A stretch of DNA of 62,079 nt from an uncultured Eubacteriales bacterium (GCA_964646385.1 CAZYEC010000004.1:7056-69134); one strand, 5' to 3'. Positions 1-58,139 are shown, counted from the first letter of the stretch. The notes: generated by a model from the letters alone, not told the origin. Numbers and translations are program-made.

Positions 1-969
1 GGGGACCACTCTGGTCCCTGAAAAACTCAAAACTTCCTCTGGGTCGCGCTCCTCAATAGGGATATCGTGGCGGTATTTCATGCCAAGGTCGAAGGTGGAT
101 ACAGGCGCAGCCACATAAAAGGGTACCCTGTGTCGTTGGGCCACGCAGGCCAGCGTGTATGTCCCAATTTTGTTGGCAACGTCCCCGTTCCCTGTTACCC
201 TATCGGCACCCACGACAATAAGGTCCACCTTCCCTTGGGAAATCAGGTATCCTGCCGCGCCGTCAACAAGAACGGTCACTTCTATGCCGTCTTGAACCAG
301 CTCCCATGCCGTCAACCTTGCCCCCTGCAAGTACGGCCTCGTCTCGCATGCATAAACCATCTCGACTTTGCCTTCTTCCCAAGCCTTTCTCACAACACCC
401 AGGGCGGTGCCGTAACCGCCCGTAGCCAAGGCCCCGGCGTTGCAGTGAGTAAGGAGCCGCGACCCGGGTTTGACAAGCCTGGCCCCGTTGGCGCCGATTG
501 TCCGGTTTATCTCAAGGTCTTCCCGGTGGATGGCAAGCGCTTCATCTTCGGCTGCCTGGACGGCCGCTTCTCTGCCCCTTTCCCCCAAAGCCCTCAAAGC
601 TGCGGCTGACACACGGTCAACAGCCCACTTAAGGTTGACTGCTGTAGGGCGAGCCGAGATCAAGTACCGCGCTGCCGCCGTTATGCAACCGGCGCATGCT
701 TGCACGTTCACGGAAATCTTGCCGCCCATCCAACGCCCCGCACCGCCGGCACCGGTACTGCTCTCCCGACCACAACATTGTGAAACGGCCAAGGCCAAAG
801 CATAGCCGCCCGCAATTCCGATGGCGGGGGCTCCTCTGACCACCATGGCAGTTATCCCGTCGGATATTTCCCGGAAATTACTGCATTTCACGTACTCTGT
901 GCGGTCGGGCAGAAGTCTTTGATCCAACAACAGAATGCTATCCTTCTGCCATATCACCGCCTGGATCAT
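1..969 (-). CDS. mtnA: Methylthioribose-1-phosphate isomerase (runs off the left edge of the window; not in the ORF track)
   Basis: Manual translation from ATG at 969 (SD GGGGTGA): MIQAVIWQKDSILLLDQRLLP...MVVRGAPAIG...VYACETRPYLQGARLTAWEL...VGADRVTGNGDVANKIGTY. Confidence 0.93.
   Translation of the reverse strand, partial: MIQAVIWQKDSILLLDQRLLPDRTEYVKCSNFREISDGITAMVVRGAPAIGIAGGYALALAVSQCCGRESSTGAGGAGRWMGGKISVNVQACAGCITAAARYLISARPTAVNLKWAVDRVSAAALRALGERGREAAVQAAEDEALAIHREDLEINRTIGANGARLVKPGSRLLTHCNAGALATGGYGTALGVVRKAWEEGKVEMVYACETRPYLQGARLTAWELVQDGIEVTVLVDGAAGYLISQGKVDLIVVGADRVTGNGDVANKIGTYTLACVAQRHRVPFYVAAPVSTFDLGMKYRHDIPIEERDPEEVLSFSGTRVVP
865..879. repeat. 15-bp palindrome TATTTCC-C-GGAAATT (NBS-like site, copy 1)
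   Basis: Exact 14-mer TATTTCCCGGAAAT, also at 9023 and 57482; lies inside mtnA. Confidence 0.7.
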
Positions 970-1008: not shown

Positions 1009-1806
1009 TCAGGATGCAGGGCCCAAATTTTTTCCGCACCCGCATCCCCGTTCAACAGGTACGGATTCTATGATTCTGGCAACCATTTTTTTCAGGATGG
1101 CGGTATGCTCTCTGAATACCTTTACGACCTCACCCTGTGTTACAGGCCGGATGTCCGCCCTACCCTCCAAACCCGCATCATAGTCCGTTATCAAGGCCAC
1201 GTTTAGGTAACACATGCCCAATTCCGCGGCAAGCACCACTTCTGGATAGCCGGTCATGTTAATAACTTTCCAACCTTGGGCAGAAAACCAGCGAGACTCG
1301 GCTTTGGTGGAAAACCGCGGGCCTTGTATTACCACCATGGTCCCACTTTCATGGTAAGAGATACCCAATTCATTGGCGCAGGAAAGGGCGATGCGGCGCA
1401 TTTCCGGGCAATACGGCTCGGCAGAACTCAGATGCACCGCCTTGGGCCCGTCGTAAAAGGTGTCTTTACGTCCGGTAGTCCTGTCGACGAACTGGTCCGA
1501 AATGACGAAATCTCCCGGTTTTACGTCCGGGTGAAGGCTGCCGGCCGCGCAGGGGCCTATGACCCTCGCTACCCCCAGCTCCTTTAGGGCCCACACGTTT
1601 GCCCTGTAATTCAGAGTGTGCGGCAAGAACTGATGGTGTCTTCCGTGACGTGGAAGAAAGGCCACTTGGGTCCCTCCCAAGTTTCCCAGGGACACTAGAT
1701 CGCTTGGTGGCCCGTAAGGAGTATCCACTTTCACTTCTGTAACATCATCCAAAAACTTGTAGAAGCCGGTGCCACCTATCACTGCGATGCTGGCTTTCTG
1801 TTCCAT
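1009..1806 (-). CDS. mtnP: S-methyl-5'-thioadenosine phosphorylase (MTAP)
   Basis: IAVIGGTG, TPYGPPS, FLPRHGRHH, QGPRFSTKAES, VINMTGYPE, ITDYD motifs; C-terminal CxC. Confidence 0.92.
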   Translation of the reverse strand: MEQKASIAVIGGTGFYKFLDDVTEVKVDTPYGPPSDLVSLGNLGGTQVAFLPRHGRHHQFLPHTLNYRANVWALKELGVARVIGPCAAGSLHPDVKPGDFVISDQFVDRTTGRKDTFYDGPKAVHLSSAEPYCPEMRRIALSCANELGISYHESGTMVVIQGPRFSTKAESRWFSAQGWKVINMTGYPEVVLAAELGMCYLNVALITDYDAGLEGRADIRPVTQGEVVKVFREHTAILKKMVARIIESVPVERGCGCGKNLGPAS

Positions 1807-3300: not shown

Positions 3301-3320
3301 CTGGCATCCTCCTCCAATAT

Positions 3321-3785
3321 TCAGATGTCTAATGTAACGATGATTTCCCTTCCGTTTACCAGCAGATCGTGGTAGGTAGCAGCTTTGAAGTAGCGCATCA
3401 AGGGGGTCGTCATCGATTCCACAAGGGCACCGCTCAGGATCGCAGTCGCTCTGAACCCTTCACGACTTTCGCGAGAGCCGCAGTCTGACTCCATCACGGC
3501 CACGGACAGGACATCTCGGGCGACAAACCCGTCGGCGTCCACCAAAAAGATCTGTTCGTTTAGAAGATTGACTATCAGCTCGTGTCGATCCTGAGCGGTG
3601 ACAGACACACGAGCTTCTTTTTCTGGGGGAACGTTTTGAGGTTCCGCCACAAGTCTCCAAAACGCCCGAATAAGCATGCCCGCCGTATCGCTCAGGTCCG
3701 CACCCCAGGCTCTGATTCTCACGTCCGACGCGTGCTCAAGGTATTCGAAACCGCCCACTTGCGTTTCCTCGCTACTCGGCTTCAA
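3321..3785 (-). CDS. Archease (RtcB cofactor)
   Basis: [30 protein letters not shown], terminal DI; directly upstream of rtcB and overlapping the gyrA stop. Confidence 0.9.
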
Positions 3786-8422: not shown

Positions 8423-9292
8423 TCATTTCCTAGGAATCAAGGGTGCCAAACGCTTTCCCAGCGCTTTTTCAAAATCTTTGTGGCTCATTTTGTCTGCTCC
8501 GATGCCCGACCTTAAAGAAGCCAGTTTTTTTGCACATTCGGCCGTTTCCTGGGAACCGCTTTCTTTCCCCGCAGACCGAAAAACTTGACCTCGAAGGTAA
8601 TTCAACAACCGGGATTCCAGTGCGTTTCTCGCCCTTTGCGCAACAAAAGGATCGCGAATCCGGCACGCGTCGCATACCTGGCGGTCCGAAAGCGCCGGAG
8701 TCTTCTCAAGAATAACTATTGCACGGTGGTAACCATACGATTCCTCGCGATCCCGGCAGTAAGGACACCCCTTCTGCGAGCCTTCATACATCCACCCACA
8801 CTTTTTGCAATGTACGAACCCCGCGGCCTCAAGAAATGTCTTGTTCTTCCCCGCGGCCTTTTTCAAGGACTGGAGAGTTCCGCTCAAATCTTTTTCGGAG
8901 CCCCGCGATCCGCCCTGAGAGCGTCTCTTACCCCCCAATGTGGCTTCTTTCCCCGGCACCGCCCGGGCAGTGGCAACCCGGATATTGTTGGCCGCAAATT
9001 CCCAGAGGTGTTCAGAAAACTTTATTTCCCGGAAATAGCTGCCTCCCAAAGCGGCGTTTAGCTTGGCAAGAATGCCCTGGCTCATATAGGAAAGTTCTTG
9101 AGACCAAACCGAAGAAGCAGTGGCCACGTACAGGACATCGCCGTCTACCCGTCTCGGTTGGGCATGGCCGGCCAGTCTTCCGACCACTCGGGGCCAAATG
9201 CCATATATGCGATATTTTCTGGCCTTTTCGAACAAGCCCAAGCCATCGAGGCTTTCCCGAAGCACCTGTTCAATGTTCACAGGGTTTGCCAC
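8423..9292 (-). CDS. dciA: DciA (DUF721) helicase-operating protein with Zn-ribbon extension
   Basis: WPRVVG..A.HAQP..VDGDVLYVATASSVWSQELSY....IL.KLN..LG...F.EIKF; CKKC...CPYC. Confidence 0.8.
   Translation of the reverse strand: MANPVNIEQVLRESLDGLGLFEKARKYRIYGIWPRVVGRLAGHAQPRRVDGDVLYVATASSVWSQELSYMSQGILAKLNAALGGSYFREIKFSEHLWEFAANNIRVATARAVPGKEATLGGKRRSQGGSRGSEKDLSGTLQSLKKAAGKNKTFLEAAGFVHCKKCGWMYEGSQKGCPYCRDREESYGYHRAIVILEKTPALSDRQVCDACRIRDPFVAQRARNALESRLLNYLRGQVFRSAGKESGSQETAECAKKLASLRSGIGADKMSHKDFEKALGKRLAPLIPRK
9023..9037. repeat. Perfect 15-bp palindrome TATTTCC-C-GGAAATA (NBS-like site, copy 2)
   Basis: Perfect 7-1-7 inverted repeat inside dciA. Confidence 0.7.
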
Positions 9293-11855: not shown

Positions 11856-13220
11856 CTATTCGTTTTGGATCCGTTTAGTCAATTCCTGAAGAGTGTTTTC
11901 AAAAGACGGGCTCGTTTTGCGTTGCCTGTTAAGTTTTTCGAAAGCATGTAAGACAGTCGTGTGGTCTCTGCCTCCAAATTGCTCGCCAATACGAGGCAAA
12001 GATGAATCGGTCAAGGTCCGGGACAGATACATGGCCACTTGTCGCGGGAAAGCTATGTTTCTGGTCCGTCGCTTGGAAGAAAAATCCGACATCTCCACAT
12101 TGTAATAGTCCGCTACAATGTTTTTGATAGATTCGATGGTTATCGGCGCACGTTTCTTTTGGGGTAGAAGGTCCCGCAAGATTTCTTTGGTCACGTCTAA
12201 GGTAACCTCTTTCATTTGCAGTGCGGTAAAAGCCAAGACTCTAATGAGCGCCCCTTCAAGCTCTCTTATATTGCTCGGGATACGTTCGGCTATGTACTGG
12301 CACACTTCAATTGGCACATCACGGTCTTCGATCTCGGCCTTTTTGCGCAAGATGGCCATTCGGGTCTCTATGTCTGGCGGCTGAATATCGCAAATGAGGC
12401 CCCATTCAAACCTGGTCCGAAGGCGTTCCTCCAAAGTGGAGATTTCTTTGGGAGGACGATCCGACGAAATGACTATCTGTTTTGAAGCCTGGTGCAGAGC
12501 ATCAAATGTGTGGAAAAACTCTTCTTGGGTGGCATCCTTGCCCGCGACAAACTGGATGTCGTCTATGAGAAGCAAATCCACACCCCGGTAACGGTTGCGA
12601 AATTCTTGGGTGTTTCCTTCCTGTATGGCTAAAATGAGTTCGTTTGTGAATGTCTCGGAAGAGACGTAGGAGACTTTAATGGCTTTATGGTGGGCCAAGA
12701 CGTAATGGGCAACTGCTTGCATTAAGTGAGTTTTACCCAAACCCACACCGCCGTATAAAAACAACGGATTATAAGTTTTTGCCGGGTTTTCCGAAACCGC
12801 CAAAGCGGCCGCATGGGCAAACCGATTGGATGCCCCAACAATGAAATTCTCAAAACTGTACCGGGGGTTAAGTCCCCTTATGTACTGGGAAACATCTTCG
12901 GCTTGTCGTTTCTTTCGCGAAGGAACGAACTGGGACTCCAAAGGGAACAGAGTTCCCGGGATGGCCCTTTGTTGAGGTGTGACAGCCAGCCTGATTTCAC
13001 AAGGCCTACCATAGGCATCTCTCCAGGCCCTATGCAGCTCTTCTTTGTAATGGGACTCGATCCAGTTTTTCGCGAATTCACTGGGGGCAGATATAGTAAG
13101 GGTTCTGTCCTCTAAGTTTACAGGCCTCGTTTCTTTCAACCAATTCAGGCTCGGACCTGCAAGGCGAGCTGAGGCCCTTTTCAGCGCATCGTCCCAGATG
13201 TCCTCCAGATTCCTGGCCAT
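11856..13220 (-). CDS. dnaA: Chromosomal replication initiator DnaA
   Basis: YSFENFIVGASN, YNPLFLYGGVGLGKTHL, LLIDDIQF, RLRTRFEWG, GGRDHTTVLHA. Confidence 0.99.
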   Translation of the reverse strand: MARNLEDIWDDALKRASARLAGPSLNWLKETRPVNLEDRTLTISAPSEFAKNWIESHYKEELHRAWRDAYGRPCEIRLAVTPQQRAIPGTLFPLESQFVPSRKKRQAEDVSQYIRGLNPRYSFENFIVGASNRFAHAAALAVSENPAKTYNPLFLYGGVGLGKTHLMQAVAHYVLAHHKAIKVSYVSSETFTNELILAIQEGNTQEFRNRYRGVDLLLIDDIQFVAGKDATQEEFFHTFDALHQASKQIVISSDRPPKEISTLEERLRTRFEWGLICDIQPPDIETRMAILRKKAEIEDRDVPIEVCQYIAERIPSNIRELEGALIRVLAFTALQMKEVTLDVTKEILRDLLPQKKRAPITIESIKNIVADYYNVEMSDFSSKRRTRNIAFPRQVAMYLSRTLTDSSLPRIGEQFGGRDHTTVLHAFEKLNRQRKTSPSFENTLQELTKRIQNE

Positions 13221-13400
13221 TCCTAATAACCACCATTTCGCATGTCTTATACAGAAAATCAGTTCGCTTTGACACTGTCAATCCGCTTTATGCACTAATG
13301 CATAGAGGTTCCGTTTCCGACTTTATGTTGGTTTTCTTCAGGAACACTTTGCCTCGTCAAGGTCATAGACCCCACAACCGCCGTATAGAAAACTCACAAT

Positions 13401-13432
13401 CTATGCACATAGTTATCAACAGCTGTGGATAA
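13401..13432. promoter_or_regulatory. DnaA-box cluster upstream of dnaA (second half of oriC, autoregulation)
   Basis: CTATGCACA 13401-13409, TTATCAACA 13413-13421, perfect TGTGGATAA 13424-13432. Confidence 0.8.
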
Positions 13433-13485
13433 AGTCCGAGATAAGCCGGTTTTTGGGCATGGCTTCCGAGTCCTCTCCGGTGAAA

Positions 13486-13514
13486 ACTATATCAGGGGCA
13501 GTGTTCTCACACAA
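13486..13514 (-). promoter_or_regulatory. Probable sigmaA promoter of dnaA
   Basis: TTGTGT-N17-TATAGT with TG extension on the minus strand, upstream of the box cluster. Confidence 0.55.
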
Positions 13515-13585
13515 CGGAACTGGTGTACGAAACCCGGGTTCAAACAGGCTGATTGACGGGAAAATCCCAGGGTAAAGGCGGTTTA

Positions 13586-13614
13586 TTGACACGATATTTT
13601 CGCTAAGATATAAT
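13586..13614 (+). promoter_or_regulatory. sigmaA promoter of the rpmH operon
   Basis: Perfect TTGACA-N17-TATAAT. Confidence 0.85.
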
Positions 13615-13666
13615 TCGTTGGACTCCTGGGGTTAAGTTCCAGAAGCGTTTTAGGGGGAAGGCGTTC

Positions 13667-13801
13667 ATGAAGCGGACGTACCAGCCAAAACGGCGCAAGA
13701 GATTTCGAACCCACGGGTTTTTGGTCAGGATGGCAACGAAAAGCGGAAGGAAGATTATAGCCCGCCGCCGATCTAGGGGTCGAAAGTCTCTTTCCGTTTA
13801 A
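13667..13801 (+). CDS. rpmH: 50S ribosomal protein L34 (not in the ORF track)
   Basis: [44 protein letters not shown]. Confidence 0.98.
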
Positions 13802-13838
13802 GCGTTTGTTTCAGATGAGGAAGAAATGAGGCGGTCGG

Positions 13839-14162
13839 GTGGTATCAGGCAGGATACCGGCGCCGTCGTACCGTAGAGTGTACAAGGAAGGCCGCTCGGT
13901 AAGCTGTCGGCGGCTGGTGTTATACTATTTGGGCGATGAACCGGGCCTTAGGCTAGGCATTAGCGTGTCAAAAAACCTGGGGAAAGCCCACGTGAGGAAT
14001 AAGCTCAAACGAAGGGTTAAAGAAGCGTTCCGGTTGTGTTTGCCCGATATCAGCGGTGAAGGCGAAATCGTTTTCATCGTGAGGCGGGGCTCGGTGAACA
14101 GCACTTTTTCAGAAGTGCTGGAATCCATGAGAGGCCTCCTAAAGAGGATGGGACTCCTGTAA
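13839..14162 (+). CDS. rnpA: Ribonuclease P protein component
   Basis: [33 protein letters not shown]. Confidence 0.95.
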
Positions 14163-14428
14163 TGGCTAAAACAGGCCTTTTGTTCCTCATAAAGATGTAC
14201 CAGACTTACATTTCACCCTTAAAGGGTCCGACATGCAGGTATTACCCCACATGTTCCGAGTACGCAAGGCAAGCCGTTTTATCTCACGGTGCTTTTAAAG
14301 GTTTCTTGTTGGCGTTGTGGAGAATCCTGCGGTGCAATCCCTTTTCGTACGGCGGTTATGATCCCGTGCCGCTCCCCCGGGGGGAGGGCCTTAAGAGGTC
14401 TAGGAGGTTCGACGAATGTCGTATATAA
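14162..14428 (+). CDS. yidD: Membrane protein insertion efficiency factor
   Basis: [34 protein letters not shown]. Confidence 0.95.
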
Positions 14429-17160: not shown

Positions 17161-18986
17161 GAGGCTTGGAAGGCGAAATGAATTTTGATGTAATCGTCGT
17201 GGGGAGCGGCCACGCCGCGGTTGAAGCGGGGTTGGCTTCTTCGAGGCTTGGAATGTACACGGCAATGGTGACTCTGAATCCAGATAACGTGGCGGGAATG
17301 CCGTGCAACCCATCCATCGGCGGCCCGGGGAAGGCTCAGATAGTCTCGGAGATCGATGCCCTGGGGGGAGAGATGGCTTTGGCCTGCGACCACGCAACTT
17401 TGTCGTTGCGGGTGCTTAATCTTTCCAAAGGGCCGGCCGTGCAGTCGTTGCGTGCTCAAGTCGACAAGACAGCATACGGGGCTTACATGAAAAGGGCTTT
17501 GACCTTGGCGGGCGTGGAAATGGTAAAAGGCAACGTCGATGAAGTATTCCTGGACGAGGGGGCCCGGGTCACAGGTGTGCGTTTGACCGGCGGAACGACG
17601 ATGAAGGCGCAAGCCGTAGTACTGTGCACCGGCGTTTATTTGGACAGCCGGATCATCATTGGGGAAGATATTCGGGATTCAGGGCCTTTGGGGGAGCCGC
17701 CTTCCCACGGGTTATCTTCTTGTCTCATGCGGTTGGGCCTGAGAATTAGTAGATTTAAAACTGGAACTTCCCCCCGAATCCACCGGGATACCATAAAATG
17801 GGATCAACTGGAACTCGAGAAGGGTACCTCCCGGCCCCGCGCGTTTTCGTTCATGTCCGAACCCAGGGTATGGGAACAAAATGTTTGTTACTCCACTTAC
17901 ACTAACGCGAAGACCCATCAGATAGTTAAAGAGAATGCCTGGCGGGCCCCTTTGTTTGACGGAACGATTAGGGGAACTGGCCCCAGGTATTGTCCGTCGA
18001 TTGAAGACAAGGTCATGAGGTTTCCCAACCGGGACAGGCATCACATCTACCTTGAAATCGAGCGCGAACAAGGGAATGAGGTGTATTTGCTTGGCCTTTC
18101 GACCAGCCTTCCTTTGGAAGTGCAACGTCTCGCCGTACAGAGTCTTCCCGGTTTGGATGAGGCCGAGATTGTGCGTCCCGGCTACGCCATAGAATACGAC
18201 TATTTGTCGTCTTCGGAGTTGAAGCCCACTTTGGAAGTCAAAAGGGTGAAAGGGCTTTATTCGGCGGGGCAAATAAACGGGACATCCGGGTACGAAGAGG
18301 CAGCCTGTCAAGGGCTTTTGGCAGGTATCAACGCTGTGAGGCACCTTCAAGGGAAGGAACAGGTCGTCTTGAGCCGAGATCAGGCTTATATTGGGGTGCT
18401 GATAGACGACATTGTGAACACACGCGTCGAAGAGCCTTACAGGATGCTTACTTCCCGGTCGGAATACCGTCTGTTGCTTCGGCAGTCTAATGCAGATTCC
18501 CGGCTGACGCCTTTGGGGAAGAAAATTGGGCTTGTGGGGGACAGCAGGTGGAGGCAGTTTGTGGCTAAAAGAAAGTGCTTGGAGCTGGGCCGCGAGATTT
18601 TGGAGCGCCCCGTTTCCGGCAGACCCATCAAAGATATGCTTAGAAACCCGAAATGCACTGTGATGGATTTTACCGGTATCATGCCGGATCTTTTGGATCT
18701 GCCCATTGCTGTGCTTGGCGAGGTGGAGATTGAAGCCAAATACGCAGGCTTTATCGAGCGTCAGCGAAGAGAGGCCGCAAGGCTCAAGCGCTATTCCGGG
18801 AAAAGCATTCCGCCGGGGTTGGACTTCTACTGTGTGCGGGGCCTATCGGCAGAAGGGCGGGACAGGATGGTCAAGCACGGGCCCTCGACGCTTGGCAGAG
18901 CAATGGAACTGGGGATCACACCGGCCGACGTCTTGGTTTTGCTGGCCTATTTGGATGGTCGCGATGGTGGGCTAGCCGGTGGTTAA
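17157..18986 (+). CDS. mnmG: tRNA uridine-5-carboxymethylaminomethyl modification enzyme MnmG
   Basis: VIVVGSGHAA, MPCNPSIGG, RFKTGTSPR, GPRYCPSIEDK, AGQINGTSGYEEAA; ATGA overlap with mnmE. Confidence 0.97.
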   Translation: MRGLEGEMNFDVIVVGSGHAAVEAGLASSRLGMYTAMVTLNPDNVAGMPCNPSIGGPGKAQIVSEIDALGGEMALACDHATLSLRVLNLSKGPAVQSLRAQVDKTAYGAYMKRALTLAGVEMVKGNVDEVFLDEGARVTGVRLTGGTTMKAQAVVLCTGVYLDSRIIIGEDIRDSGPLGEPPSHGLSSCLMRLGLRISRFKTGTSPRIHRDTIKWDQLELEKGTSRPRAFSFMSEPRVWEQNVCYSTYTNAKTHQIVKENAWRAPLFDGTIRGTGPRYCPSIEDKVMRFPNRDRHHIYLEIEREQGNEVYLLGLSTSLPLEVQRLAVQSLPGLDEAEIVRPGYAIEYDYLSSSELKPTLEVKRVKGLYSAGQINGTSGYEEAACQGLLAGINAVRHLQGKEQVVLSRDQAYIGVLIDDIVNTRVEEPYRMLTSRSEYRLLLRQSNADSRLTPLGKKIGLVGDSRWRQFVAKRKCLELGREILERPVSGRPIKDMLRNPKCTVMDFTGIMPDLLDLPIAVLGEVEIEAKYAGFIERQRREAARLKRYSGKSIPPGLDFYCVRGLSAEGRDRMVKHGPSTLGRAMELGITPADVLVLLAYLDGRDGGLAGG

Positions 18987-19728
18987 GTCTCCCAGAGACC
19001 GGGAAGTGCTGGTTTCCAGGGGTATGCTTGCATTCGCCGGATCTCTTAACGCTATGGGGTTACGAGTGTCTTCCTCTGCCTTAAGAGGGGTAAAGACATG
19101 GTTGAATTTCTATTACAGGTGGGACGGCAGGAGGACCGTTGGGTTTCCGGAGCCGGAGCTGGTAGCTGCAAAGCTGTTGGCAGACTCGTTCTCATTTGGG
19201 ATGCTGGAACCGAGCGTTTCGGGACTTCACATGATGGACCTGGGAAGCGGAAACGGCTGGCCAGGACTTGCTTTAAAGCTTTCTCATCAAAAGGCTGAGC
19301 TTATCCTGTTGGATTCTCGTCAAGGGGCCTGCGATTTCATGGGAAGGTACGTGGTTGCTGCCGGGCTTGAGGGCGTGAGGGTGACGCTTGGAAGGGCTGA
19401 GGAGTTGGGCAGGCGTTGCGAGTTGCGTGAGAGCCAGGACTTGGTGGTATCCCGGGCGATGGCCATGCCCCCGGTAGTGCTGGAGCTCGCTTCTCCCTTT
19501 GTTAGGGCAGGCGGCCAACTGGTGCTCTGGGTTGGCCGTGAGCAGGCGAAAAGACTGGCGGAATATCCTGTCTTGAAAGAATTGGGAATAAGGTTGTCTG
19601 ATATTGTAGAGTATACTCTGCCGTCAGGCTTGGGGGGCAGGGCGCTGGTAGTGTATTCCAAGGTGCAGCGTACCGATCCCGGATACCCCAGGAGGTTTGC
19701 AAAAATCCGCGGCAAACCAATATTTTGA
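18979..19728 (+). CDS. rsmG: 16S rRNA m7G methyltransferase RsmG/GidB (divergent)
   Basis: DLGSGNGWPG, LLDSRQ, GRAEE, VVSRA; position after mnmG. Confidence 0.85.
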   Translation: MVKSPRDREVLVSRGMLAFAGSLNAMGLRVSSSALRGVKTWLNFYYRWDGRRTVGFPEPELVAAKLLADSFSFGMLEPSVSGLHMMDLGSGNGWPGLALKLSHQKAELILLDSRQGACDFMGRYVVAAGLEGVRVTLGRAEELGRRCELRESQDLVVSRAMAMPPVVLELASPFVRAGGQLVLWVGREQAKRLAEYPVLKELGIRLSDIVEYTLPSGLGGRALVVYSKVQRTDPGYPRRFAKIRGKPIF

Positions 19729-19813
19729 CTTCCCGTTTACGCGACAGGTGTTTTGCCTTTACCGGGAGGAAAAATCTGCCTTATCCGAGAAAGGTCTGTC
19801 GGGGGGTGTGAGG

Positions 19814-20614
19814 GTGTCGGTAGGCGCGTTGTTGGACAAGTTCGAGACGGCGGATGTTCCCACGGATCGTATAGAGATGAGGGTGGGGGCTTGCGTGCCG
19901 GGCGGCACGGGGTCAGTTAGAAAGAAGATTATCAAGAACCTTGTGAGAGGGAGCAGGGCTCCAATTTTCGTTCGCCCGGTTGGGGATAAATACGAGCTGG
20001 TTGCCGGGGATACCGAATTCTTAGCCGCCCGTAAACAAGGGCAGGTCGCAGTGCGCGTGTTTCTCTCTGCTCTGGACGATAAAGATGCTTTGTTTTTGCG
20101 GCTTCACGAGGGTGGGCAAAGGCGCGATCTTAATGCGGTTGAGGAGGCAGAAATAATCAGGGAACTCAATGTGGAACACGGGTTGACACAGCAGGAAATA
20201 GCCGTGAGGTGCGATAGGGTCCAATCGACAATAGCGAACAAGTTAAGGCTGCTATCCTTGCCATCTGAAATCCTGGCAAGCCTTCGAAAGGGCGAAATCG
20301 GGGAGCGACACGCCAGGGCGCTTCTCAAGTTGAAGGACAGAGATAAGCAGATGGAGGCCTTCCAACGTTTGATGCGGTGGGGTTTGTCTGCAAAGGATGT
20401 GGAATCTCTATGCAGTGTTTTGACCGGAGACAAAAGCCGCCGGAACACTAAGCGAACGACGCAGGGCGCCGTGAAGGATCCGCGCATTTATCAAAACGCG
20501 TTGCGGAGCGTTGTCAGGGAGATGCAAAAAGCAGGACTGGAGGCCGTGTGTGAAGAAAACGTGACCCACGACAAATGGGAATTTCGCGTAACTGTGGACG
20601 TTACCGATTTCTGA
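19814..20614 (+). CDS. noc: Noc-like ParB paralogue with a degenerate CTP-binding domain
   Basis: rsmG-[x]-parA slot; HTH GLTQQEIA..QSTIANKLRLL, IGERHARAL, Noc-like C-terminus DPRIYQNALR; GERR motif replaced by GDTE. Confidence 0.8.
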   Translation: MSVGALLDKFETADVPTDRIEMRVGACVPGGTGSVRKKIIKNLVRGSRAPIFVRPVGDKYELVAGDTEFLAARKQGQVAVRVFLSALDDKDALFLRLHEGGQRRDLNAVEEAEIIRELNVEHGLTQQEIAVRCDRVQSTIANKLRLLSLPSEILASLRKGEIGERHARALLKLKDRDKQMEAFQRLMRWGLSAKDVESLCSVLTGDKSRRNTKRTTQGAVKDPRIYQNALRSVVREMQKAGLEAVCEENVTHDKWEFRVTVDVTDF

Positions 20615-20628
20615 ACCGGCGTGGTGGC

Positions 20629-21405
20629 ATGTCAAAAGTAATAGCGATCGCAAACCAGAAAGGCGGGGTAGGAAAGACTACTACCGCGATAAATCTTGGC
20701 GCTTGCTTGGGCGACTTGGGGCGCTCTGTTTTGTTGGTGGATTTAGACCCCCAAGGGAATGCGTCGAGCGGAGTAGGAGTGGATCGGCACGGCAGCGGGC
20801 CGTACCTTTACGATTCTCTCATAGGGGAACTTGCTCCTGCCAAAGTTCTGAGGGCCACAGGCTTCAGGGGTCTTTCCATTTTGCCTTCTTCCTTGGACCT
20901 GGCCGGCGCCGATATTGAGCTGGTTAACATGTCGGGCCGCGAATCCCGATTAAAAAGGATAGTTGCCACACTTAGAGACGATTTTGACTACACCCTGATT
21001 GACTGTCCGCCTTCTTTGGGTCTTCTTACGATAAATGCCTTTACGGCCGCCGACTCAGTATTGATTCCCATCCAGTGTGAGTATTACGCTTTGGAAGGGT
21101 TGACGCAGCTACTAAGTGTCATAAAGCTTGTGAGGGGTAGGCTCAACTCCTCTTTGGATCTCGAGGGTGTTTTGCTCACCATGTTTGACGGAAGGACGAA
21201 TTTGTCGCTGCAAGTGGCAGAAGACGTGAAAAGATATTTTCGGGACAAGGTGTACCTTACCATTATTCCAAGAAATGTTCGACTGTCGGAGGCCCCCTCT
21301 CATGGAAAACCTATACACATTTATGATCCCAGGTCCCGAGGGGCCGAGGTTTATCAAGAATTAGCCGAGGAGGTCTTGCGGCGTGGCCAGAAAGAGCTTA
21401 GGTAG
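20629..21405 (+). CDS. parA: Chromosome partitioning ATPase ParA/Soj
   Basis: IAIANQKGGVGKTTT, DLDPQGNAS, IDCPPSLG, EYYALEG, IPRNVRLSEAPSHG. Confidence 0.97.
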   Translation: MSKVIAIANQKGGVGKTTTAINLGACLGDLGRSVLLVDLDPQGNASSGVGVDRHGSGPYLYDSLIGELAPAKVLRATGFRGLSILPSSLDLAGADIELVNMSGRESRLKRIVATLRDDFDYTLIDCPPSLGLLTINAFTAADSVLIPIQCEYYALEGLTQLLSVIKLVRGRLNSSLDLEGVLLTMFDGRTNLSLQVAEDVKRYFRDKVYLTIIPRNVRLSEAPSHGKPIHIYDPRSRGAEVYQELAEEVLRRGQKELR

Positions 21406-22237
21406 GGGAATTGAGGCCCTCATACCTATCGCAGCCCCCGAGGAATCCGGCGGGGACGTGCTTCGGTTGAAAACCAACCAGATTGAGGCAGATCCAAACC
21501 AGCCCAGGCAGGTCTTTGATGAGGCCAAGATCCGGGAACTTGCTTCATCCCTGAAAGAACATGGGATGATTCAGCCTCTAATCGTCCGGCGAGTGGGCGA
21601 TGTTTACAGATTGGTGGCAGGGGAGCGTCGCCTTAGGGCCGCCGAGCATGCGGGAATGACTGAAATACCGGTAGTGTTGAGAGAAATGGACGACAGGGAG
21701 GCAATGGAAGTCTCCTTAGTGGAAAACCTGCAAAGAGAAGACTTGGGTCCCCTTGAGCAGGCGGCTGCCTTCCAGCGCCTTGTGGATGAATTCGGGTTGA
21801 CTCAGGAAGAGATTGCCAGGCGTGTGGGAAAGAGCAGACCCGACGTGGCCAATACGCTGCGTCTCTTGAAGCTGGAACCTGAGGTCAAAGTCCTTGTCAA
21901 TGAAGGCAAAATCTCCGGTGGACACGGGCGGGCTTTGGTTACCTTGGATAGAGGGACCCAGTTGAAAATAGCTGAAGCCGTTTTGAGGCAAGGATTATCT
22001 GTGAGAAAGACTGAAGAAGCGGTAGCAAGAGAGGTGAACCGAAAAGTTGCTCGCGGGGGGAGAGCCCCGGTGTGGGTTCGCCGGCAGGATGCCGAGGAAT
22101 TGTTGTCTGCAGCCTTGGGGAGCCCCGTACTGGTCAAGAGCTACCGCAACAAAGGCTCCATAGAGATTACCTTTTACGGCGAAGAAGACCTTGAGCGTCT
22201 TATCGATCTGGTCCACGGGGGGACGCGCAAGGACTGA
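21383..22237 (+). CDS. parB: Chromosome partitioning CTPase ParB/Spo0J
   Basis: PNQPR, GMIQPLIVR, VAGERRLRAA, ENLQREDL, SRPDVANTLRLL, SGGHGRAL. Confidence 0.97.
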   Translation: MARKSLGRGIEALIPIAAPEESGGDVLRLKTNQIEADPNQPRQVFDEAKIRELASSLKEHGMIQPLIVRRVGDVYRLVAGERRLRAAEHAGMTEIPVVLREMDDREAMEVSLVENLQREDLGPLEQAAAFQRLVDEFGLTQEEIARRVGKSRPDVANTLRLLKLEPEVKVLVNEGKISGGHGRALVTLDRGTQLKIAEAVLRQGLSVRKTEEAVAREVNRKVARGGRAPVWVRRQDAEELLSAALGSPVLVKSYRNKGSIEITFYGEEDLERLIDLVHGGTRKD

Positions 22238-22248
22238 GCCGTACAGCC

Positions 22249-22264
22249 TGTTTCACGTGAAACA
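22249..22264. promoter_or_regulatory. parS centromere site
   Basis: Perfect TGTTTCACGTGAAACA just after the parB stop. Confidence 0.95.
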
Positions 22265-30285: not shown

Positions 30286-31239
30286 TTGAGAAATCTTACT
30301 GCACGGCCTTTGGTGGAAAGCGCGCTGTTGGCCGCCCTCGGGGCTGTGCTGATTCTGTTCGCTTTTTACATGCCGGTCCTTGGGGTCGTCGTAGCCCTGG
30401 CATCGCCGTTGCCCGCCGCTTTTGCCGTTATTCGCCACGGGGGCCGCTGGGGTTTGCTGACTTCCATAGTGTCAATTTTGGCGCTTCTCCCGTTTGTGGA
30501 TTGGATTACCGCGGTCGGCCTGTGGATCCTTTACGGGTGGGTGGGCCTGGCTTTTGGCATTGCCGTAAGACGGCAGTATTCGGCGGGATTGGTCTTGGCT
30601 GTCACGGCTCTTGCCTTTGTTTTCGGTGTGCTTTCGGTGTTCGTCACCTCATATTTGGTGACGGGGTTGAGCCTTTTCGATTTCGTGGATCAGCTGATTA
30701 AATCCGTTGAAATTGCCGTTAGGATGAACGAGAGGATTTTGGGCCCAAACCCTGTTCTTGACCAGATTGCAGCTTCTCTTTCCGAAAGAGATGTCTTGCT
30801 GAAAATGATACCGTCAACCGTTGTCCTATCGAGCCTGCTGTTGGCTTACGTGAATATTGAGGTCTTTCGCCGGGTAATGCCGCGGTTTGGTTACAATATT
30901 GAGGGGTTGCCTCCTTTCTCGAGGTGGATTTTCCCGGAAATAGTCGCTTGGATTGGTCTCCTGGGCCTATTGGGTATACCTTATCTTCCCATGAATGCGA
31001 TGAAAACCGCAGCTGAAAACATTTTTATCATTGTGGCTTTTCTGGCCCACCTCCAAGCGCTGTCCTTCATTTCCTTCTTTCTTCTGCGAGCGGGTTTCCC
31101 CAGGCTCATGACCGGACTGGTAGTCGTGTTCGTTCTTAGCGTAACCCTTACTGCCCCGGGCTTCTCTTTCATCGCTTCCTTTTTTGGTATGATAGATATG
31201 CTTTTTGACTTCAGACGAGTTAGATACGGTTTGGCGTAA
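30286..31239 (+). CDS. yybS: YybS/DUF2232 membrane protein
   Basis: LVESALLAAL..., many TM helices, terminal D.LFDFRR; slot between rpsR and rplI. Confidence 0.88.
   Translation: MRNLTARPLVESALLAALGAVLILFAFYMPVLGVVVALASPLPAAFAVIRHGGRWGLLTSIVSILALLPFVDWITAVGLWILYGWVGLAFGIAVRRQYSAGLVLAVTALAFVFGVLSVFVTSYLVTGLSLFDFVDQLIKSVEIAVRMNERILGPNPVLDQIAASLSERDVLLKMIPSTVVLSSLLLAYVNIEVFRRVMPRFGYNIEGLPPFSRWIFPEIVAWIGLLGLLGIPYLPMNAMKTAAENIFIIVAFLAHLQALSFISFFLLRAGFPRLMTGLVVVFVLSVTLTAPGFSFIASFFGMIDMLFDFRRVRYGLA
30928..30942. repeat. NBS-like 15-bp site ATTTTCC-C-GGAAATA (near copy)
   Basis: Core TTTCC-C-GGAAA intact, two outer mismatches; inside yybS. Confidence 0.5.
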
Positions 31240-36435: not shown

Positions 36436-36525
36436 GGAGGGGTGGCAGAGCGGTTGATTGCGGCAGTCTTGAAAACTGCTGAGGGTGCAAGCCCTCCGTG
36501 GGTTCGAATCCCACCTCCTCCGCCA
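36436..36525 (+). tRNA. tRNA-Ser(TGA)
   Basis: Cloverleaf, GCAGT-CT TGA AA-ACTGC, long variable arm, encoded CCA. Confidence 0.97.
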
Positions 36526-36526
36526 C

Positions 36527-36555
36527 TTGGAACGCCTGGCCATGCGTGATAAAAT
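36527..36555 (+). promoter_or_regulatory. Second sigmaA promoter within the tRNA cluster
   Basis: TTGGAA-N17-TAAAAT with TG extension. Confidence 0.55.
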
Positions 36556-36599
36556 AGGTTTTGCGGGGCTCTTTGGGAAAGAGCGTCAGGTTTTTACGC

Positions 36600-36691
36600 G
36601 GAGAGGTCGCCTAGCTGGCCGAGGGCGACGGTTTGCTAAACCGTTAAGGGGGTAAACCCCTTCGAGGGTTCGAATCCCTCCCTCTCCGCCA
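36600..36691 (+). tRNA. tRNA-Ser(GCT)
   Basis: ACGGT-TT GCT AA-ACCGT, long variable arm, CCA. Confidence 0.97.
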
Positions 36692-36697
36692 GAAATT

Positions 36698-36774
36698 GCG
36701 CCCGTGGCTCAATTGGATAGAGCGACAGACTACGGATCTGTAGGTTGTGGGTTCGAGTCCCGCCGGGCGCACCA
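36698..36774 (+). tRNA. tRNA-Arg(ACG)
   Basis: ACAGA-CT ACG GA-TCTGT, A20, CCA. Confidence 0.97.
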
Positions 36775-36795
36775 TCAGCGATAATCGGTCTTGAT

Positions 36796-36874
36796 GCGCC
36801 CGTAGCTCAGGCGGATAGAGCGGGGGATTCCTAATCCCCGTCTGCCGGAGGTTCGAGTCCTCCCGGGCGCACCA
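36796..36874 (+). tRNA. tRNA-Arg(CCT)
   Basis: GGGGA-TT CCT AA-TCCCC, A20, CCA. Confidence 0.95.
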
Positions 36875-36891
36875 AATTCTTTGGTAATGGA

Positions 36892-37365
36892 ATGAATGGT
36901 GTAACGTTGGATGAATTTGCTTTCGGCATGGGACTGGCAATCCGAGAGGCTTTGCGGTCCTACAGGTTGGAAGAAGTGCCTGTGGGGGCTGTAATACTGA
37001 AGGATGGAGTCCTCATTGGAAGAGGGCACAACCTTAAAGAGACTTTAGGAGACCCTACCGCCCACGCTGAAATTCGGGCTCTTAGGGAAGCGGCCCAACA
37101 TGAGGACTCTTGGCGCATTTTGGGTGCCACTATGTATGTGACTCTTGAACCTTGTCCAATGTGTGCCGGGGCGATTGTCTTGGCCAGAATACCGACTTTG
37201 GTCATAGGGGCCAAGGACCCTAAAACCGGCGCTTGCGGTTCCGTCATGGATATCACAAGTGACGGAAGACTGAATCACAGGGTAAACGTCGTATACGGCG
37301 TAAGACAAGAGGAATGCGCCTCGTTGTTAGAGGCGTTTTTCAAAGACCTCAGGGAAAAGGGGTAA
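36892..37365 (+). CDS. tadA: tRNA adenosine(34) deaminase
   Basis: EVPVGAVI, DPTAHAEI, YVTLEPCPMCAGAI, DPKTGACGS, LNHRV. Confidence 0.96.
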   Translation: MNGVTLDEFAFGMGLAIREALRSYRLEEVPVGAVILKDGVLIGRGHNLKETLGDPTAHAEIRALREAAQHEDSWRILGATMYVTLEPCPMCAGAIVLARIPTLVIGAKDPKTGACGSVMDITSDGRLNHRVNVVYGVRQEECASLLEAFFKDLREKG

Positions 37366-37372
37366 CCTTTTC

Positions 37373-37462
37373 GGAGGGGTGTCGGAGCGGTTGAACGAGC
37401 TCGCCTCGAAAGCGAGTAGGCGTTTACGCGCCTCGTGGGTTCGAATCCCACCCCCTCCGCCA
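37373..37462 (+). tRNA. tRNA-Ser(CGA)
   Basis: CTCGC-CT CGA AA-GCGAG, long variable arm, CCA. Confidence 0.97.
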
Positions 37463-37483
37463 TTGGATGTTGATATCGACCGC

Positions 37484-37573
37484 GGAGGGATGTCCGAGCG
37501 GCTGAAGGAGCACGCCTGGAAAGCGTGTGGACGGGGAACCGTCTCGTGGGTTCAAATCCCACTCCCTCCGCCA
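37484..37573 (+). tRNA. tRNA-Ser(GGA)
   Basis: CACGC-CT GGA AA-GCGTG, long variable arm, CCA. Confidence 0.97.
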
Positions 37574-37925: not shown

Positions 37926-39542
37926 GTGTCTTACATGGCTCTGTACCGCGTCTGGCGCCCTGCCAGGTGGGAAGATGTAGTCAATCAACAAGCGGTTGTC
38001 CGGATCCTGCAAAACGCTCTTTTGGAAGGCAAAGTGTCCCACGCTTATCTGTTTTCCGGTCCCCGGGGGACCGGGAAGACTACTGTGGCGCGCCTTTTGG
38101 CAAAAGCCCTCAACTGTCAATCGCCACAAGGAGCAGAACCCTGCAACTCGTGTTCGTCTTGCGAGGCTGTGGCTTCAGGCACGTCGGTGGACGTGATAGA
38201 AATCGACGCGGCCTCCAACCGGGGAATAGATGAGATGCGCAGTCTCAGGGAAAGCGTCAGATATGTCCCGGTAATGGGCAAGTTTAAGGTGTACATAATA
38301 GATGAAGTCCATATGTTGACCCAGGAAGCGTTTAACGCCCTTTTGAAAACGTTGGAAGAACCACCCGGCCATGTCATCTTTGTAATGGCAACGACTGCTC
38401 CCCACAAGATACCCGTTACAATCGCTTCCAGGTGCCAGAGGATGGATTTTCATCGTCTCTCAATCGAGGATATTCAGGGGCAACTTCGCAAGATTCTTGC
38501 TAACGTCGGTGAATACCGTGACAATTCGGAAAACGCTTTGACAGTGATTGCAAGAGCCGCTCAGGGTTCCATGCGCGACGCTTTGTCTATCTTGGATCTT
38601 TGTCTCACTTACGGTGAAGGATTTGTGAATGAGGATGATGTCCGGGAAATACTCGGGGAAACCGCCTCGGAATCCATGGCCAAATTGTTCGAGGCCCTGT
38701 CTGCCGGAGATTTGCAGACTGTTCTCAGCATGACAAGGAACCTTTCCGACAGGGGGAAAGACATGGGCGAATTGGCGGGAGAAATCGGCGCTTATGCCCG
38801 GGATTTGTTGCTGCTGAAGTCGACCCGCAGGACTCCCAATCTCGGCAGGCCGCCCGACGAAATGGCACATATGAGGCACTTGGGAGAATCTCTTTCCAAT
38901 CCCATGTTGGTTTCTTTGCTGGATGCTGCCGCAAGGGCCGTGGGGACCATGCGCAACGCCGACGATCCCCGTTTAATGCTGGAAGTCTCGCTGCTTGGGG
39001 TGATGCTTTCTGGGGCAATTCCGGCAGCCCGGCCTGCGGGGGAATCTCAGGAACCCCGTCAAGAAGCAACGGGGCCCGTGCCCAAGGTTCAAAAGGCGAG
39101 AACCGTAGAGGAGGAACCGGTGACCCCACCCGAAGACCGGATACAAGAGCTATCTTTGGAAAACATCAAAGCCGTTTGGACCAGGCTTCTTGACAGTCTG
39201 TTACGGGCGAAAAAAGCTCTGACCAGAGCATACCTTCTTCCGGCAGAGCCTTGGCGCCTGGAAGGAAACACGCTTTTTTTGGCGTATCCCAAAGGCTATG
39301 TAACCCACATGGAACAGATGACGTCGAAACCCCACAAGGAGGTAGTTGAAGAATATCTCGTGGGAATAATGGGGCATCCGGTAACGCTTGTGGCAGAGAT
39401 TTGCCCCGGCGATTCCGGTCAGACTAATCCAACAAGTTGCGGCTCCGGGGAACCGGGACAGGGAGTCTCCCACGCCCAACAGGATTTGCATCCCCTGGTG
39501 AAAGCTGCAATAACTATGGTTGACGGCAAAGTGGTGACCTAG
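37926..39542 (+). CDS. dnaX: DNA polymerase III subunit gamma/tau
   Basis: MSYMALYRVWRP, GPRGTGKTT, EIDAASNRG, IIDEVHML, AFNALLKTLEEPP, SRCQR. Confidence 0.97.
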   Translation: MSYMALYRVWRPARWEDVVNQQAVVRILQNALLEGKVSHAYLFSGPRGTGKTTVARLLAKALNCQSPQGAEPCNSCSSCEAVASGTSVDVIEIDAASNRGIDEMRSLRESVRYVPVMGKFKVYIIDEVHMLTQEAFNALLKTLEEPPGHVIFVMATTAPHKIPVTIASRCQRMDFHRLSIEDIQGQLRKILANVGEYRDNSENALTVIARAAQGSMRDALSILDLCLTYGEGFVNEDDVREILGETASESMAKLFEALSAGDLQTVLSMTRNLSDRGKDMGELAGEIGAYARDLLLLKSTRRTPNLGRPPDEMAHMRHLGESLSNPMLVSLLDAAARAVGTMRNADDPRLMLEVSLLGVMLSGAIPAARPAGESQEPRQEATGPVPKVQKARTVEEEPVTPPEDRIQELSLENIKAVWTRLLDSLLRAKKALTRAYLLPAEPWRLEGNTLFLAYPKGYVTHMEQMTSKPHKEVVEEYLVGIMGHPVTLVAEICPGDSGQTNPTSCGSGEPGQGVSHAQQDLHPLVKAAITMVDGKVVT

Positions 39543-57183: not shown

Positions 57184-58139
57184 TGGTTTCGAAGGGGGAA
57201 GTCGGCTTGAAGGAAATCGATATCTTCCAGGTGGATGCCTTTACCGATGTGTTGTTCGGCGGAAACGCGGCAGGGGTTGTTCCCGATGCCACCGGTTTGT
57301 CCGGCGATGTAATGCAAAAAATCGCTGGGGAGATGAACTTGTCTGAGACGGCTTTTGTCCAAGGCGGGGGCCAGAGCGGGCCTGCCGATTTCGAGGTCAG
57401 GTTTTTTACCCCTGTATCCGAGGTGGACTTGTGCGGGCACGCGACTATAGGCGCCTTTTGGCTATTGGCCGAACTAGGGGTTATTTCCCGGAAATTGCCG
57501 GATGTGAGGGTGACCCAGGAGACCAAAGCCGGAGTTTTGCCTGTGGACATCGAGTACGGTTGCGAAGGCGCCCTGTCCCGGGTGATGATGACTCAAAATG
57601 CCCCTGAAGTCGTGGCGGAACTCTCTTTTCAAGAGGTATCGGAACTGGAAGAGCTGCTGGGGGCCCCCCAAAGTTCCATTGGGGGTTTTGGCCGCGCCAG
57701 GCCCCAGGTTGTTTCCACGGGGTTACCGGACCTGATCACTCCTGTGATTTCTCGAGAAGCCCTTTTGTCCATGAGGCCGAACATGGCGCCGCTTACGGAT
57801 TTTTGTAATGATCGCGGCATAATAAGCGTCCACTGCTTTTCCCTTGACACGGTGCATCCCGCCGCCACGGTCCACTGCAGGGATTTTTCTCCGGCCGTGG
57901 GGGTGCCTGAGGAACCGGCCACGGGCACTGCTTCCGGTGCCACCGGAGCTTATTTGGCCCTGAACAATTTGGTCAGGATTTCTAGTCCTACAACTCGGAT
58001 TGTCTGCGAACAAGGGCACATCCTCAAGCGTCCCTCCAAAATACATGTTGAAATCACCAAGGAAGGGCCAAATGTCGTGGGTGTCAGGGTGGGCGGAAGC
58101 GCAGTCACCGCCATCTCTGGCAGAATCAGAATTCCGTAG
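57180..58139 (+). CDS. PhzF/diaminopimelate-epimerase-like isomerase
   Basis: FQVDAFT...GGNAAGV, SETAF, EVDLCGHAT, EEPATGTA, EQGHILKRPS. Confidence 0.9.
   Translation: MMVSKGEVGLKEIDIFQVDAFTDVLFGGNAAGVVPDATGLSGDVMQKIAGEMNLSETAFVQGGGQSGPADFEVRFFTPVSEVDLCGHATIGAFWLLAELGVISRKLPDVRVTQETKAGVLPVDIEYGCEGALSRVMMTQNAPEVVAELSFQEVSELEELLGAPQSSIGGFGRARPQVVSTGLPDLITPVISREALLSMRPNMAPLTDFCNDRGIISVHCFSLDTVHPAATVHCRDFSPAVGVPEEPATGTASGATGAYLALNNLVRISSPTTRIVCEQGHILKRPSKIHVEITKEGPNVVGVRVGGSAVTAISGRIRIP
57482..57496. repeat. 15-bp palindrome TATTTCC-C-GGAAATT (NBS-like site, copy 3)
   Basis: Identical to 865-879; inside the phzF-like gene. Confidence 0.7.

Follow-up and report, generated by a model that had tools for sequence, protein, structure and literature searches.

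What does a ParB-family protein do when it has kept its DNA reader and parted with its nucleotide switch? The question is raised by a gene at positions 19814-20614 of a 62,079-nucleotide stretch of DNA from an uncultured Eubacteriales bacterium (GCA_964646385.1 CAZYEC010000004.1:7056-69134; the whole stretch is called the window below). Noc and ParB serve as the models for cytidine triphosphate (CTP) switches, and every Noc function characterised so far (spreading, membrane binding and nucleoid occlusion) requires CTP. The gene product, which appears to be Noc-derived and which we name NocL, is a natural test of ParB/Noc behaviour without that switch. Our reading, to which we give a probability of about 0.6, is that NocL is the Noc of Candidatus Fermentithermobacillia, evolved to a nucleotide-free form that would be static on 15-bp sites. 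Noc itself is a known kind of system; what would be new, judging from sequence, is a Noc lineage devoid of CTP motifs together with 15-bp sites resembling the Noc-binding site (NBS), and our literature search found no description of either.

The original prediction held that all three CTP motifs are lost in NocL and kept in the adjacent ParB, which is what alignments indicate. When NocL is aligned pairwise with Thermus Spo0J and Geobacillus Noc, GDTE (of GDTEFLA) faces GERR, EGGQR faces ENLQR and no QPR is found, whereas the neighbouring ParB retains PNQPR, GERRLRA and ENLQRE. Alignment columns were then compared between 45 sequences of the clade to which NocL belongs, four of its sister group and 40 canonical Noc sequences (B. 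subtilis Noc numbering). The Box I Gln, present in 40/40 canonical sequences, is Val, Leu, Ile or Met in 45/45 clade members. In Box II, the canonical Glu (E87, 40/40) is Asp in 44/45, the first Arg (R88, 40/40) is hydrophobic or Thr, the second (R89, 40/40) is Glu in 36, Asp in three, Gln in three and Arg in 0/45 (Glu68 in NocL), and the third (R91, 38/40) is Leu in 35/45. The Box III Asn (N121, 40/40) is Gly in 40 and Ala in five clade members and Asn in 0/45 (Gly100 in NocL). The Gln of Box I, the arginines of Box II and the Asn of Box III survive in none of the clade sequences (0/45), and the GxxR phosphate-binding (P) motif reads G-D-x-E/D/Q, its phosphate-binding Arg being gone. The substitutes are themselves held constant, including R23 (42/45), G25 (45/45), P29 (44/45), G30 (42/45), G31 (42/45) and D66 (44/45), with E99 and R103 of Box III invariant. 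In these alignments every residue known to hold CTP (Box I Gln and Arg, Box II Arg-Arg-x-Arg and Box III Asn) is thus swapped for a different, conserved set.

Mutants of B. subtilis Noc exist for two of these positions. With R89A CTP binding is lost, and N121S leaves weak binding with no hydrolysis; both variants nucleate at the NBS, with no accumulation on closed DNA or spreading, no liposome binding and no complementation (PMC8429893). The GxxR P motif is nearly invariant among all ParB folds that bind nucleoside triphosphates (NTPs), and an Arg-to-Ala change there serves as a non-binding control (PMC12704722). Given the mutant data and the near-invariance of GxxR in NTP binders, it is very likely that NocL has lost CTP binding.

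Motif loss is a property of a lineage and not of this genome. A search of 5.8 billion proteins returned about 43 clusters at 47-67% identity to NocL and a sister group at about 40%, followed by a gap to ordinary Noc (33-42%). About 50 protein clusters of Candidatus Fermentithermobacillaceae/-ia carry the same motif replacements, and in a library of 1.84 billion proteins clustered at 50% just five representatives align across the N-terminal 45 residues. A genome scan placed the clade proteins in metagenome-assembled genomes (MAGs) of Candidatus Fermentithermobacillaceae and in the complete genome of Ca. Fermentithermobacillus carboniphilus Bu02, and a metagenome scan for further loci yielded mostly duplicates of the genome loci. 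The clade is therefore family- to class-wide within a class-level Bacillota lineage (Candidatus Fermentithermobacillia). Among the 269 nearest proteins, GxRR and ENxxR are missing only in this clade and its sister; four other degenerate ParB/Noc candidates in that set were rejected, as they keep GxRR or differ solely by an Asn-to-Asp change. The closest canonical Noc (locus L024, 45% identity, same synteny) still has its motifs (RFQAR, GERRWRA and ENLQR), which places their loss on the branch to this lineage. The sister subclade (loci L021-L023, proteins P0044-P0046 and P0124, all from Fermentithermobacillaceae MAGs) has another degenerate set, AGDRDFLRW, VLGSNRRE and REDSVPPSE, and its proteins bear a C-terminal tail of 20-40 amino acids.

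The degenerate domain has been maintained. Nei-Gojobori dN/dS between the closest locus pairs is about 0.07-0.2 overall and per domain, with N-domain values of 0.06-0.19 similar to those of the helix-turn-helix (HTH) domain, and the identity of NocL to its clade counterparts as measured against the window (~56%) falls between RsmG (~45%) and ParB (~66%). NocL is under purifying selection, degenerate N-domain included. The original prediction had asked whether GDTE-type proteins form a conserved clade or whether the degeneration is unique to this genome and relaxed; the loss is clade-wide, and the clade is monophyletic in a neighbour-joining (NJ) tree with low dN/dS (0.07-0.2) in every domain. 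An AlphaFold2 model of NocL has a predicted local distance difference test score of 86.6, mostly 84-95 in the N-domain, which has the beta/alpha secondary structure of ParB-N. Its best Foldseek matches are ParB/Noc structures, and the DNA-binding domain superposes on that of the Noc-NBS complex 6Y93 with a template modelling score of 0.84-0.88 and a root-mean-square deviation of 2.4-2.7 Å. The ParB-CTPase fold is thus predicted to be retained despite the loss of its motifs.

Descent from Noc is suggested by position, specificity residues and the C-terminal domain, as the original prediction proposed. The gene occupies the classical noc position of Bacillota, between rsmG and parA-parB; the order mnmG-rsmG-nocL-parA-parB-alr is common to the window and 23/23 clade loci (L001-L023), with an intact nocL open reading frame (ORF) in each. 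Noc specificity is set by Q173, K179, K184 and R201 (Caulobacter numbering), of which Q173 reads adenine 1 and R201 cytosine 6 of the NBS half-site, while the permissive role needs only one Lys, at either 179 or 184 (Jalal et al., 2020; PMC7383237). NocL Q137, K143 and R165 are equivalent to Q173, K179 and R201, where ParB has Arg, Thr and Gly, and the same three residues are found in 45/45 clade members; the fourth position, on which the original prediction is silent, is Ser148 in NocL and Lys or Arg in 41/45. NocL therefore has 3/4 Noc specificity residues, both base-reading ones included. Beside the recognition Gln, Ser172 is replaced by Val, a clade-specific change (39/45) that may relate to the altered site centre described below. 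A hidden Markov model (HMM) built from 40 canonical Noc C-termini only gives NocL 45.5 bits (E 2e-14; clade range 36-57), and ParB C-termini reach no more than 3.3 bits. An HMM comparison of DNA-binding domains shows a modest Noc preference, +6 bits on average in the clade and +15 for NocL.

General family models are less decisive. In Pfam, HTH_ParB matches at 4e-27, and ParB_N scores 20.1 bits, under its 26.3 cutoff; in TIGR04285, the NCBIfam model of Noc, residues 49-261 align to model positions 40-253 of 255 at 169.7 bits against a cutoff of 315. Relatives in public records are named only 'ParB/RepB/Spo0J family', and the automatic 'ParB family partition protein' annotation conceals a distinct subfamily. 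In the NJ tree (residues 45-205) the clade sits on a long branch and, with the root at the midpoint, falls outside Noc as well as ParB; the tree thus leaves Noc versus ParB ancestry unsettled. On synteny, specificity residues, the C-terminal domain HMM and the modest DNA-binding-domain preference, the view of NocL as a Noc-derived positional orthologue of noc is supported.

A change in the protein's presumed DNA target accompanies the change in the protein. The pattern TATTTCC-S-GGAAATA (in sequence form TATTTCCSGGAAATA; with flanks, T-ATTTCCSGGAAAT-A/T) corresponds to the canonical 16-bp NBS (TATTTCCCGGGAAATA) minus one central base pair, resulting in a 7-1-7 architecture whose half-site ATTTCC is identical to that of the NBS. 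The window contains three exact 13-bp cores (ATTTCCCGGAAAT; starts 866, 9024 and 57483) and three one-mismatch copies (starts 1400, 30929 and 38638). In an unbiased enumeration of the window's gapped palindromes ATTTCC-N1-GGAAAT comes out on top, with 3 observed where 0.003 are expected. The 15-mer at up to three mismatches occurs nine times (expectation 1.7), and 0/100 shuffles reach that number. Across clade loci, TTTCC-N1-GGAAA equals parS in enrichment by palindrome count. Site density in this origin-spanning window is about one per 9-10 kb (up to two mismatches); B. subtilis reportedly has about 70 NBS in 4.2 Mb (Wu et al., 2009).

Spacing was assessed by counting TATTTCC-Nx-GGAAATA by the number of nucleotides between half-sites, loci being 20-kb stretches. 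For spacings of 0/1/2/3/4 nt, clade DNA around nocL (433 kb, up to two mismatches) contains 3/14/3/2/0 matches, seven gyrB-centred clade loci (up to two mismatches) 2/23/1/0/0, and non-clade loci (1.41 Mb, up to one mismatch) 0/1/4/0/0. The four spacing-2 matches in non-clade loci include exact copies of TATTTCCCGGGAAATA in L038, L052 and L098, the last of which shares its sites with L038 and is apparently its duplicate. No 16-bp NBS (7-N2-7), exact or with one mismatch, was found in the 433 kb of clade DNA, nor any canonical NBS in the window. The 1-nt spacing is enriched solely in loci of the NocL clade, and canonical-Noc loci have the 16-bp form.

Individual sites are also conserved as DNA. 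The copy in the DciA-domain gene (9023) is present, exactly or with one mismatch, in 6/7 other genomes, and no other stretch of invariant nucleotides in the alignment of that gene is as long (14 nt; next longest 5). The PNP_UDP_1 copy (1399; TATTGCCCGGAAATG) is invariant in 8/8 genomes, four synonymous positions included; of 146 codons for invariant amino acids with degenerate codons, seven keep their codon across the eight genomes, and four of the seven encode the site's Tyr-Cys-Pro-Glu. Copies matching the site at 865 lie near the start of an IF-2B-family gene in four genomes (L161-L164) and are not retained in L158; their orthology with site 865 is taken from synteny. From these alignments, the sites in the dciA and pnp genes are conserved as DNA and not merely as protein, with synonymous positions held across 5-8 genomes. 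Clade-specific spacing and synonymous-position conservation give the link between protein and 15-bp sites, already made in the original prediction, a firmer footing than the window alone could offer. The half-site retains A1 and C6, the two bases that set the NBS apart from parS, and the residues reading them are invariant in the clade; with the CodY consensus unmatched as well, assignment of the sites to NocL is well supported, and on half-site identity and co-occurrence they probably belong to it.

Two other palindromes deserve mention. Those of parS type are the other strongly enriched palindrome in clade loci, which together with the perfect 16-bp parS near parB indicates that ParB/parS keeps canonical even spacing, whereas the Noc-like sites do not. 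CCCTT-N-AAGGG is also enriched (window copies at 14216, 23956 and 40233) and was rejected as a dispersed site: its main recurrent copy (14216; ~4390 in L001-L004) is one orthologous position near rpmH/rnpA, and the rest are scattered singletons. The flanks of that copy are nearly identical in L001-L004, pointing to orthologous sequence conservation.

One proposal in the original prediction fared less well, namely that the N-terminus of NocL could form a membrane helix and the protein act as a tether. The hydrophobic pattern on which it was based (V3/L6/L7/F10) is literally present. The best 9-residue hydrophobic moment, however, is 0.49 in NocL (clade mean 0.46) as compared with 0.51 ± 0.16 in random 16-mers and 0.60-0.75 in canonical Noc N-termini, and net charge is -1 or 0 in the clade (-1 in NocL, which has no basic residues there) as compared with +2 in canonical Noc. 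The N-terminal sequence also varies widely across the clade. With moment and charge no better than random and poor conservation, a membrane-targeting amphipathic helix was rejected, and the N-terminus lends the membrane tether no support.

In the mechanism we favour, a NocL dimer formed through the C-terminal domain would bind dispersed, mostly intragenic 15-bp palindromes with half-sites 1 bp closer than in the NBS. Unable to bind CTP, it would have no CTP-gated clamp closure, sliding or membrane switch of the kind seen in Bacillus Noc, and would most likely form static site-bound complexes. The remodelled N-domain may serve as a nucleotide-free protein-protein or oligomerisation module, and high local site density near the origin may replace spreading. 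Several points weigh against this picture. We infer that NocL is non-spreading, with caution since ParT shows ParB-like diffusion on DNA without CTP or a CTPase domain (PMC12260392); likewise, binding of NocL to the 15-bp sites is drawn from half-site identity and co-occurrence, and loss of nucleotide binding from sequence and published mutants. Conserved basic residues near the old pocket (R23, R/K102 and R103) are compatible with a rewired ligand site, and a second, canonical noc may exist elsewhere in clade genomes. Sites counted beyond the window are not all independent, as some are orthologous copies, and the sister subclade (L021-L023) has no clear spacing signal in 62 kb, with one TTTCC-N2-GGAAA site in L021.

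The ParT precedent leads directly to a different mechanism, in which NocL closes and then diffuses or accumulates without CTP, the closer half-sites creating a clash that drives N-domain engagement and release. This is a tentative possibility. ParT, from Streptomyces plasmid SCP2, has no CTPase domain, loads at parS and diffuses on DNA, its accumulation depending on half-site distance via a steric clash of opposing subunits (PMC12260392), and the NocL N-domain is constrained as much as the HTH, with conserved replacement residues. The N-domain of ParT is different and truncated, however, leaving transfer of the mechanism unsupported, and the engaged N-domain interface of ParB and Noc is built around the nucleotide. 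At similarly low odds, protein and site may have co-evolved so that a sliding clamp once gated by CTP became a system needing no nucleotide: loss of the central base pair would alter subunit geometry, and the N-domains would then either engage of their own accord, giving a self-loading clamp, or hold the dimer fast at its site, with many close sites replacing spreading. An N-domain that still switches by binding another nucleotide or small ligand, via R23, R/K102, R103, D66 and E68, seems improbable. Its substituted positions are highly conserved and some ParB-fold families bind ATP or GTP, but 17 of 28 ParB-fold proteins tested in a 2025 survey, which raised an analogy with pseudokinases, bound no NTP (PMC12704722). 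Moreover, the GxxR Arg, nearly invariant in the tested NTP binders, is Glu, Asp or Gln in the clade, and the pocket gains two acidic residues.

Two further alternatives concern whether NocL acts on these sites, or at all. The 15-bp palindromes may be owned by another factor, such as a 7-1-7 binder like CodY, with NocL binding something else or nothing specific; the link between NocL and the sites is inferential, and other bacterial regulators also use 7-1-7 boxes. We consider this unlikely. A CodY-box origin was rejected, the consensus having 0 matches at up to three mismatches in the window against 2.1 expected. The half-site is exactly that of the NBS, including A1 and C6, the bases that the retained Gln and Arg recognise (PMC7383237), the sites are mostly intragenic as NBS are, and the 16-bp form is absent from clade DNA and present at canonical-Noc loci. 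That nocL is a decaying or non-functional paralogue whose motifs went under relaxed selection might be suggested by the subthreshold ParB_N and Noc HMM scores, and is very improbable: replacements common to about 50 clusters, an intact ORF in every locus, dN/dS of 0.07-0.2 with the N-domain included and an evolutionary rate between those of RsmG and ParB refute it. The static, nucleotide-free reading remains the one we prefer; the features on which it rests are listed in Table 1.

Table 1. Coordinates of nocL, its domains and motif remnants, neighbouring genes and palindromic sites in the window
Feature	Position	Strand	Remarks
nocL coding sequence	19814..20614	+	GTG start, TGA stop, 266 aa, begins MSVGALLDKF
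N-terminal ParB/Srx-type fold, ~residues 11-104	19844..20125	+	Predicted (AlphaFold2, Foldseek); all nucleotide-contact motifs replaced
Box I remnant, R23-G31 (RVGACVPGG)	19880..19906	+	No N-x-x-Q-P-R; clade consensus RPGAxVPGG; Gln and Arg of QPR gone
Box II remnant, G65-D-T-E-F-L-A71	20006..20026	+	Canonical Noc GERRxRA
Box III remnant, E99-G-G-Q-R103	20108..20122	+	Canonical Noc ENLQR
HTH DNA-binding domain, residues 105-205	20126..20428	+	Pfam, alignments, Foldseek
Recognition helix, Q137-K143	20222..20242	+	
R165	20306..20308	+	
Noc-type C-terminal (dimerisation) domain, residues 220-266	20471..20611	+	HMM; D222, R224, I225, N228 and G241 shared with Noc
rsmG (gidB)	18979..19728	+	Upstream neighbour of nocL; synteny in L001-L023
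parA/soj	20629..21405	+	Downstream neighbour of nocL; domain/family profile matches, synteny
parB/spo0J, canonical	21383..22237	+	Boxes I-III intact; two genes downstream of nocL
parS, perfect 16-bp TGTTTCACGTGAAACA	22249..22264	.	12 bp past the parB stop codon
Site TATTTCCCGGAAATT	865..879	.	Probably 5' part of an IF-2B/MtnA-like gene running off the window (from synteny)
Variant site CATTTCCGGGCAATA (reverse complement TATTGCCCGGAAATG)	1399..1413	.	In PNP_UDP_1 gene
Site TATTTCCCGGAAATA	9023..9037	.	Within DciA-domain gene; orthologous copies in 6 other genomes
Variant site ATTTTCCCGGAAATA	30928..30942	.	
Variant site GATGTCCGGGAAATA	38637..38651	.	
Site TATTTCCCGGAAATT	57482..57496	.	Within ORF 57180-58139

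A longer mechanical ORF for nocL, from an upstream TTG at 19697, would add 39 codons (19697-19813). Every homologue starts at the GTG, which is preceded by a G-rich Shine-Dalgarno-like stretch (19801-19806); both observations favour the GTG as the true start. In the window, mnmE, mnmG and rsmG lie upstream of nocL, and parA, parB, parS and alr downstream. A promoter and terminator scan of the nocL flanks found nothing exceeding background, so that the gene is probably part of an operon that includes its neighbours.

The replication origin falls inside the window, with dnaA-dnaN-recF-dciA-like-gyrB-gyrA on the minus strand to the left, and a plus-strand block to the right running from about 14.4 kb through mnmE-mnmG-rsmG, which in related loci starts with rpmH-rnpA-yidC-jag. 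A single consensus DnaA box is found in 11856-14415, at 13424. Between recF and gyrB lies a 289-aa ORF (8423-9292, minus strand) whose orthologues carry DciA (PF05258) and which hosts the best-conserved 15-bp site; a small DUF721/RemB protein is usual at this position in Bacilli, and the present ORF is much longer. After gyrA, positions 1849-3785 (minus strand) probably encode an Archease-RtcB pair, by synteny with Pfam-annotated related loci; the pair is present in L157-L159 and L164 and absent in L160-L163. Six clustered tRNA genes (36436-37570) lie immediately before the large signal recognition particle RNA (37592-37856).

If our reading holds, a class-level lineage keeps the Noc DNA reader, dimerisation domain and CTPase fold under selection, having discarded the nucleotide contacts and shortened the site by 1 bp. 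This opens up the role of a non-switch ParB N-domain, possibly a 'pseudo-CTPase' by analogy with pseudokinases, as well as the coupling between half-site spacing and clamp geometry, and the prospect of nucleoid occlusion or origin organisation through dense static sites in place of spreading.

Among known systems, PadC, Srx, SerK and the non-NTP-binding set of the fold survey use the ParB fold as scaffold or enzyme and not as a switch; no member of this group is an HTH protein of Noc type encoded at the noc locus, and the survey describes no Noc without a P motif (PMC12704722). ParT resembles NocL as we read it, being a ParB-family DNA binder that operates without CTP and for which half-site spacing matters. 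Its N-terminal region is cut to two helices, and it works with a ParA partner in plasmid partition at an 18-bp parS (PMC12260392); with a full beta/alpha ParB-N fold predicted, NocL is not a ParT. ParB/Spo0J has ancestry, fold and HTH in common with NocL, and is set apart by its CTP motifs, Arg/Thr/Gly specificity residues, 16-bp parS, other C-terminal domain and ParA-interaction motif. Noc of B. subtilis and Geobacillus thermoleovorans (TIGR04285; PDB 7NFU, 7NG0, 7OL9 and 6Y93) shares with NocL the rsmG-noc-soj-spo0J position, three-domain layout, Q173/K179/R201 (and K/R184 in most clade members), Noc-type C-terminal domain and half-site ATTTCC. Unlike Noc, NocL has Boxes I-III replaced, no basic amphipathic N-terminal peptide, 15-bp (7-1-7) sites and Val for Ser172; by its sequence it thus falls outside Noc as defined by CTP motifs, membrane helix, 16-bp NBS and HMM cutoff. 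The engineered Noc variants R89A and N121S (Jalal et al., 2021; PMC8429893) are altered at the same two positions at which NocL has Glu and Gly and are, for that reason, its best experimental proxy; they are laboratory loss-of-function mutants, whereas the substitutions in NocL appear to be ancient, many more in number and selected together with re-spaced sites.

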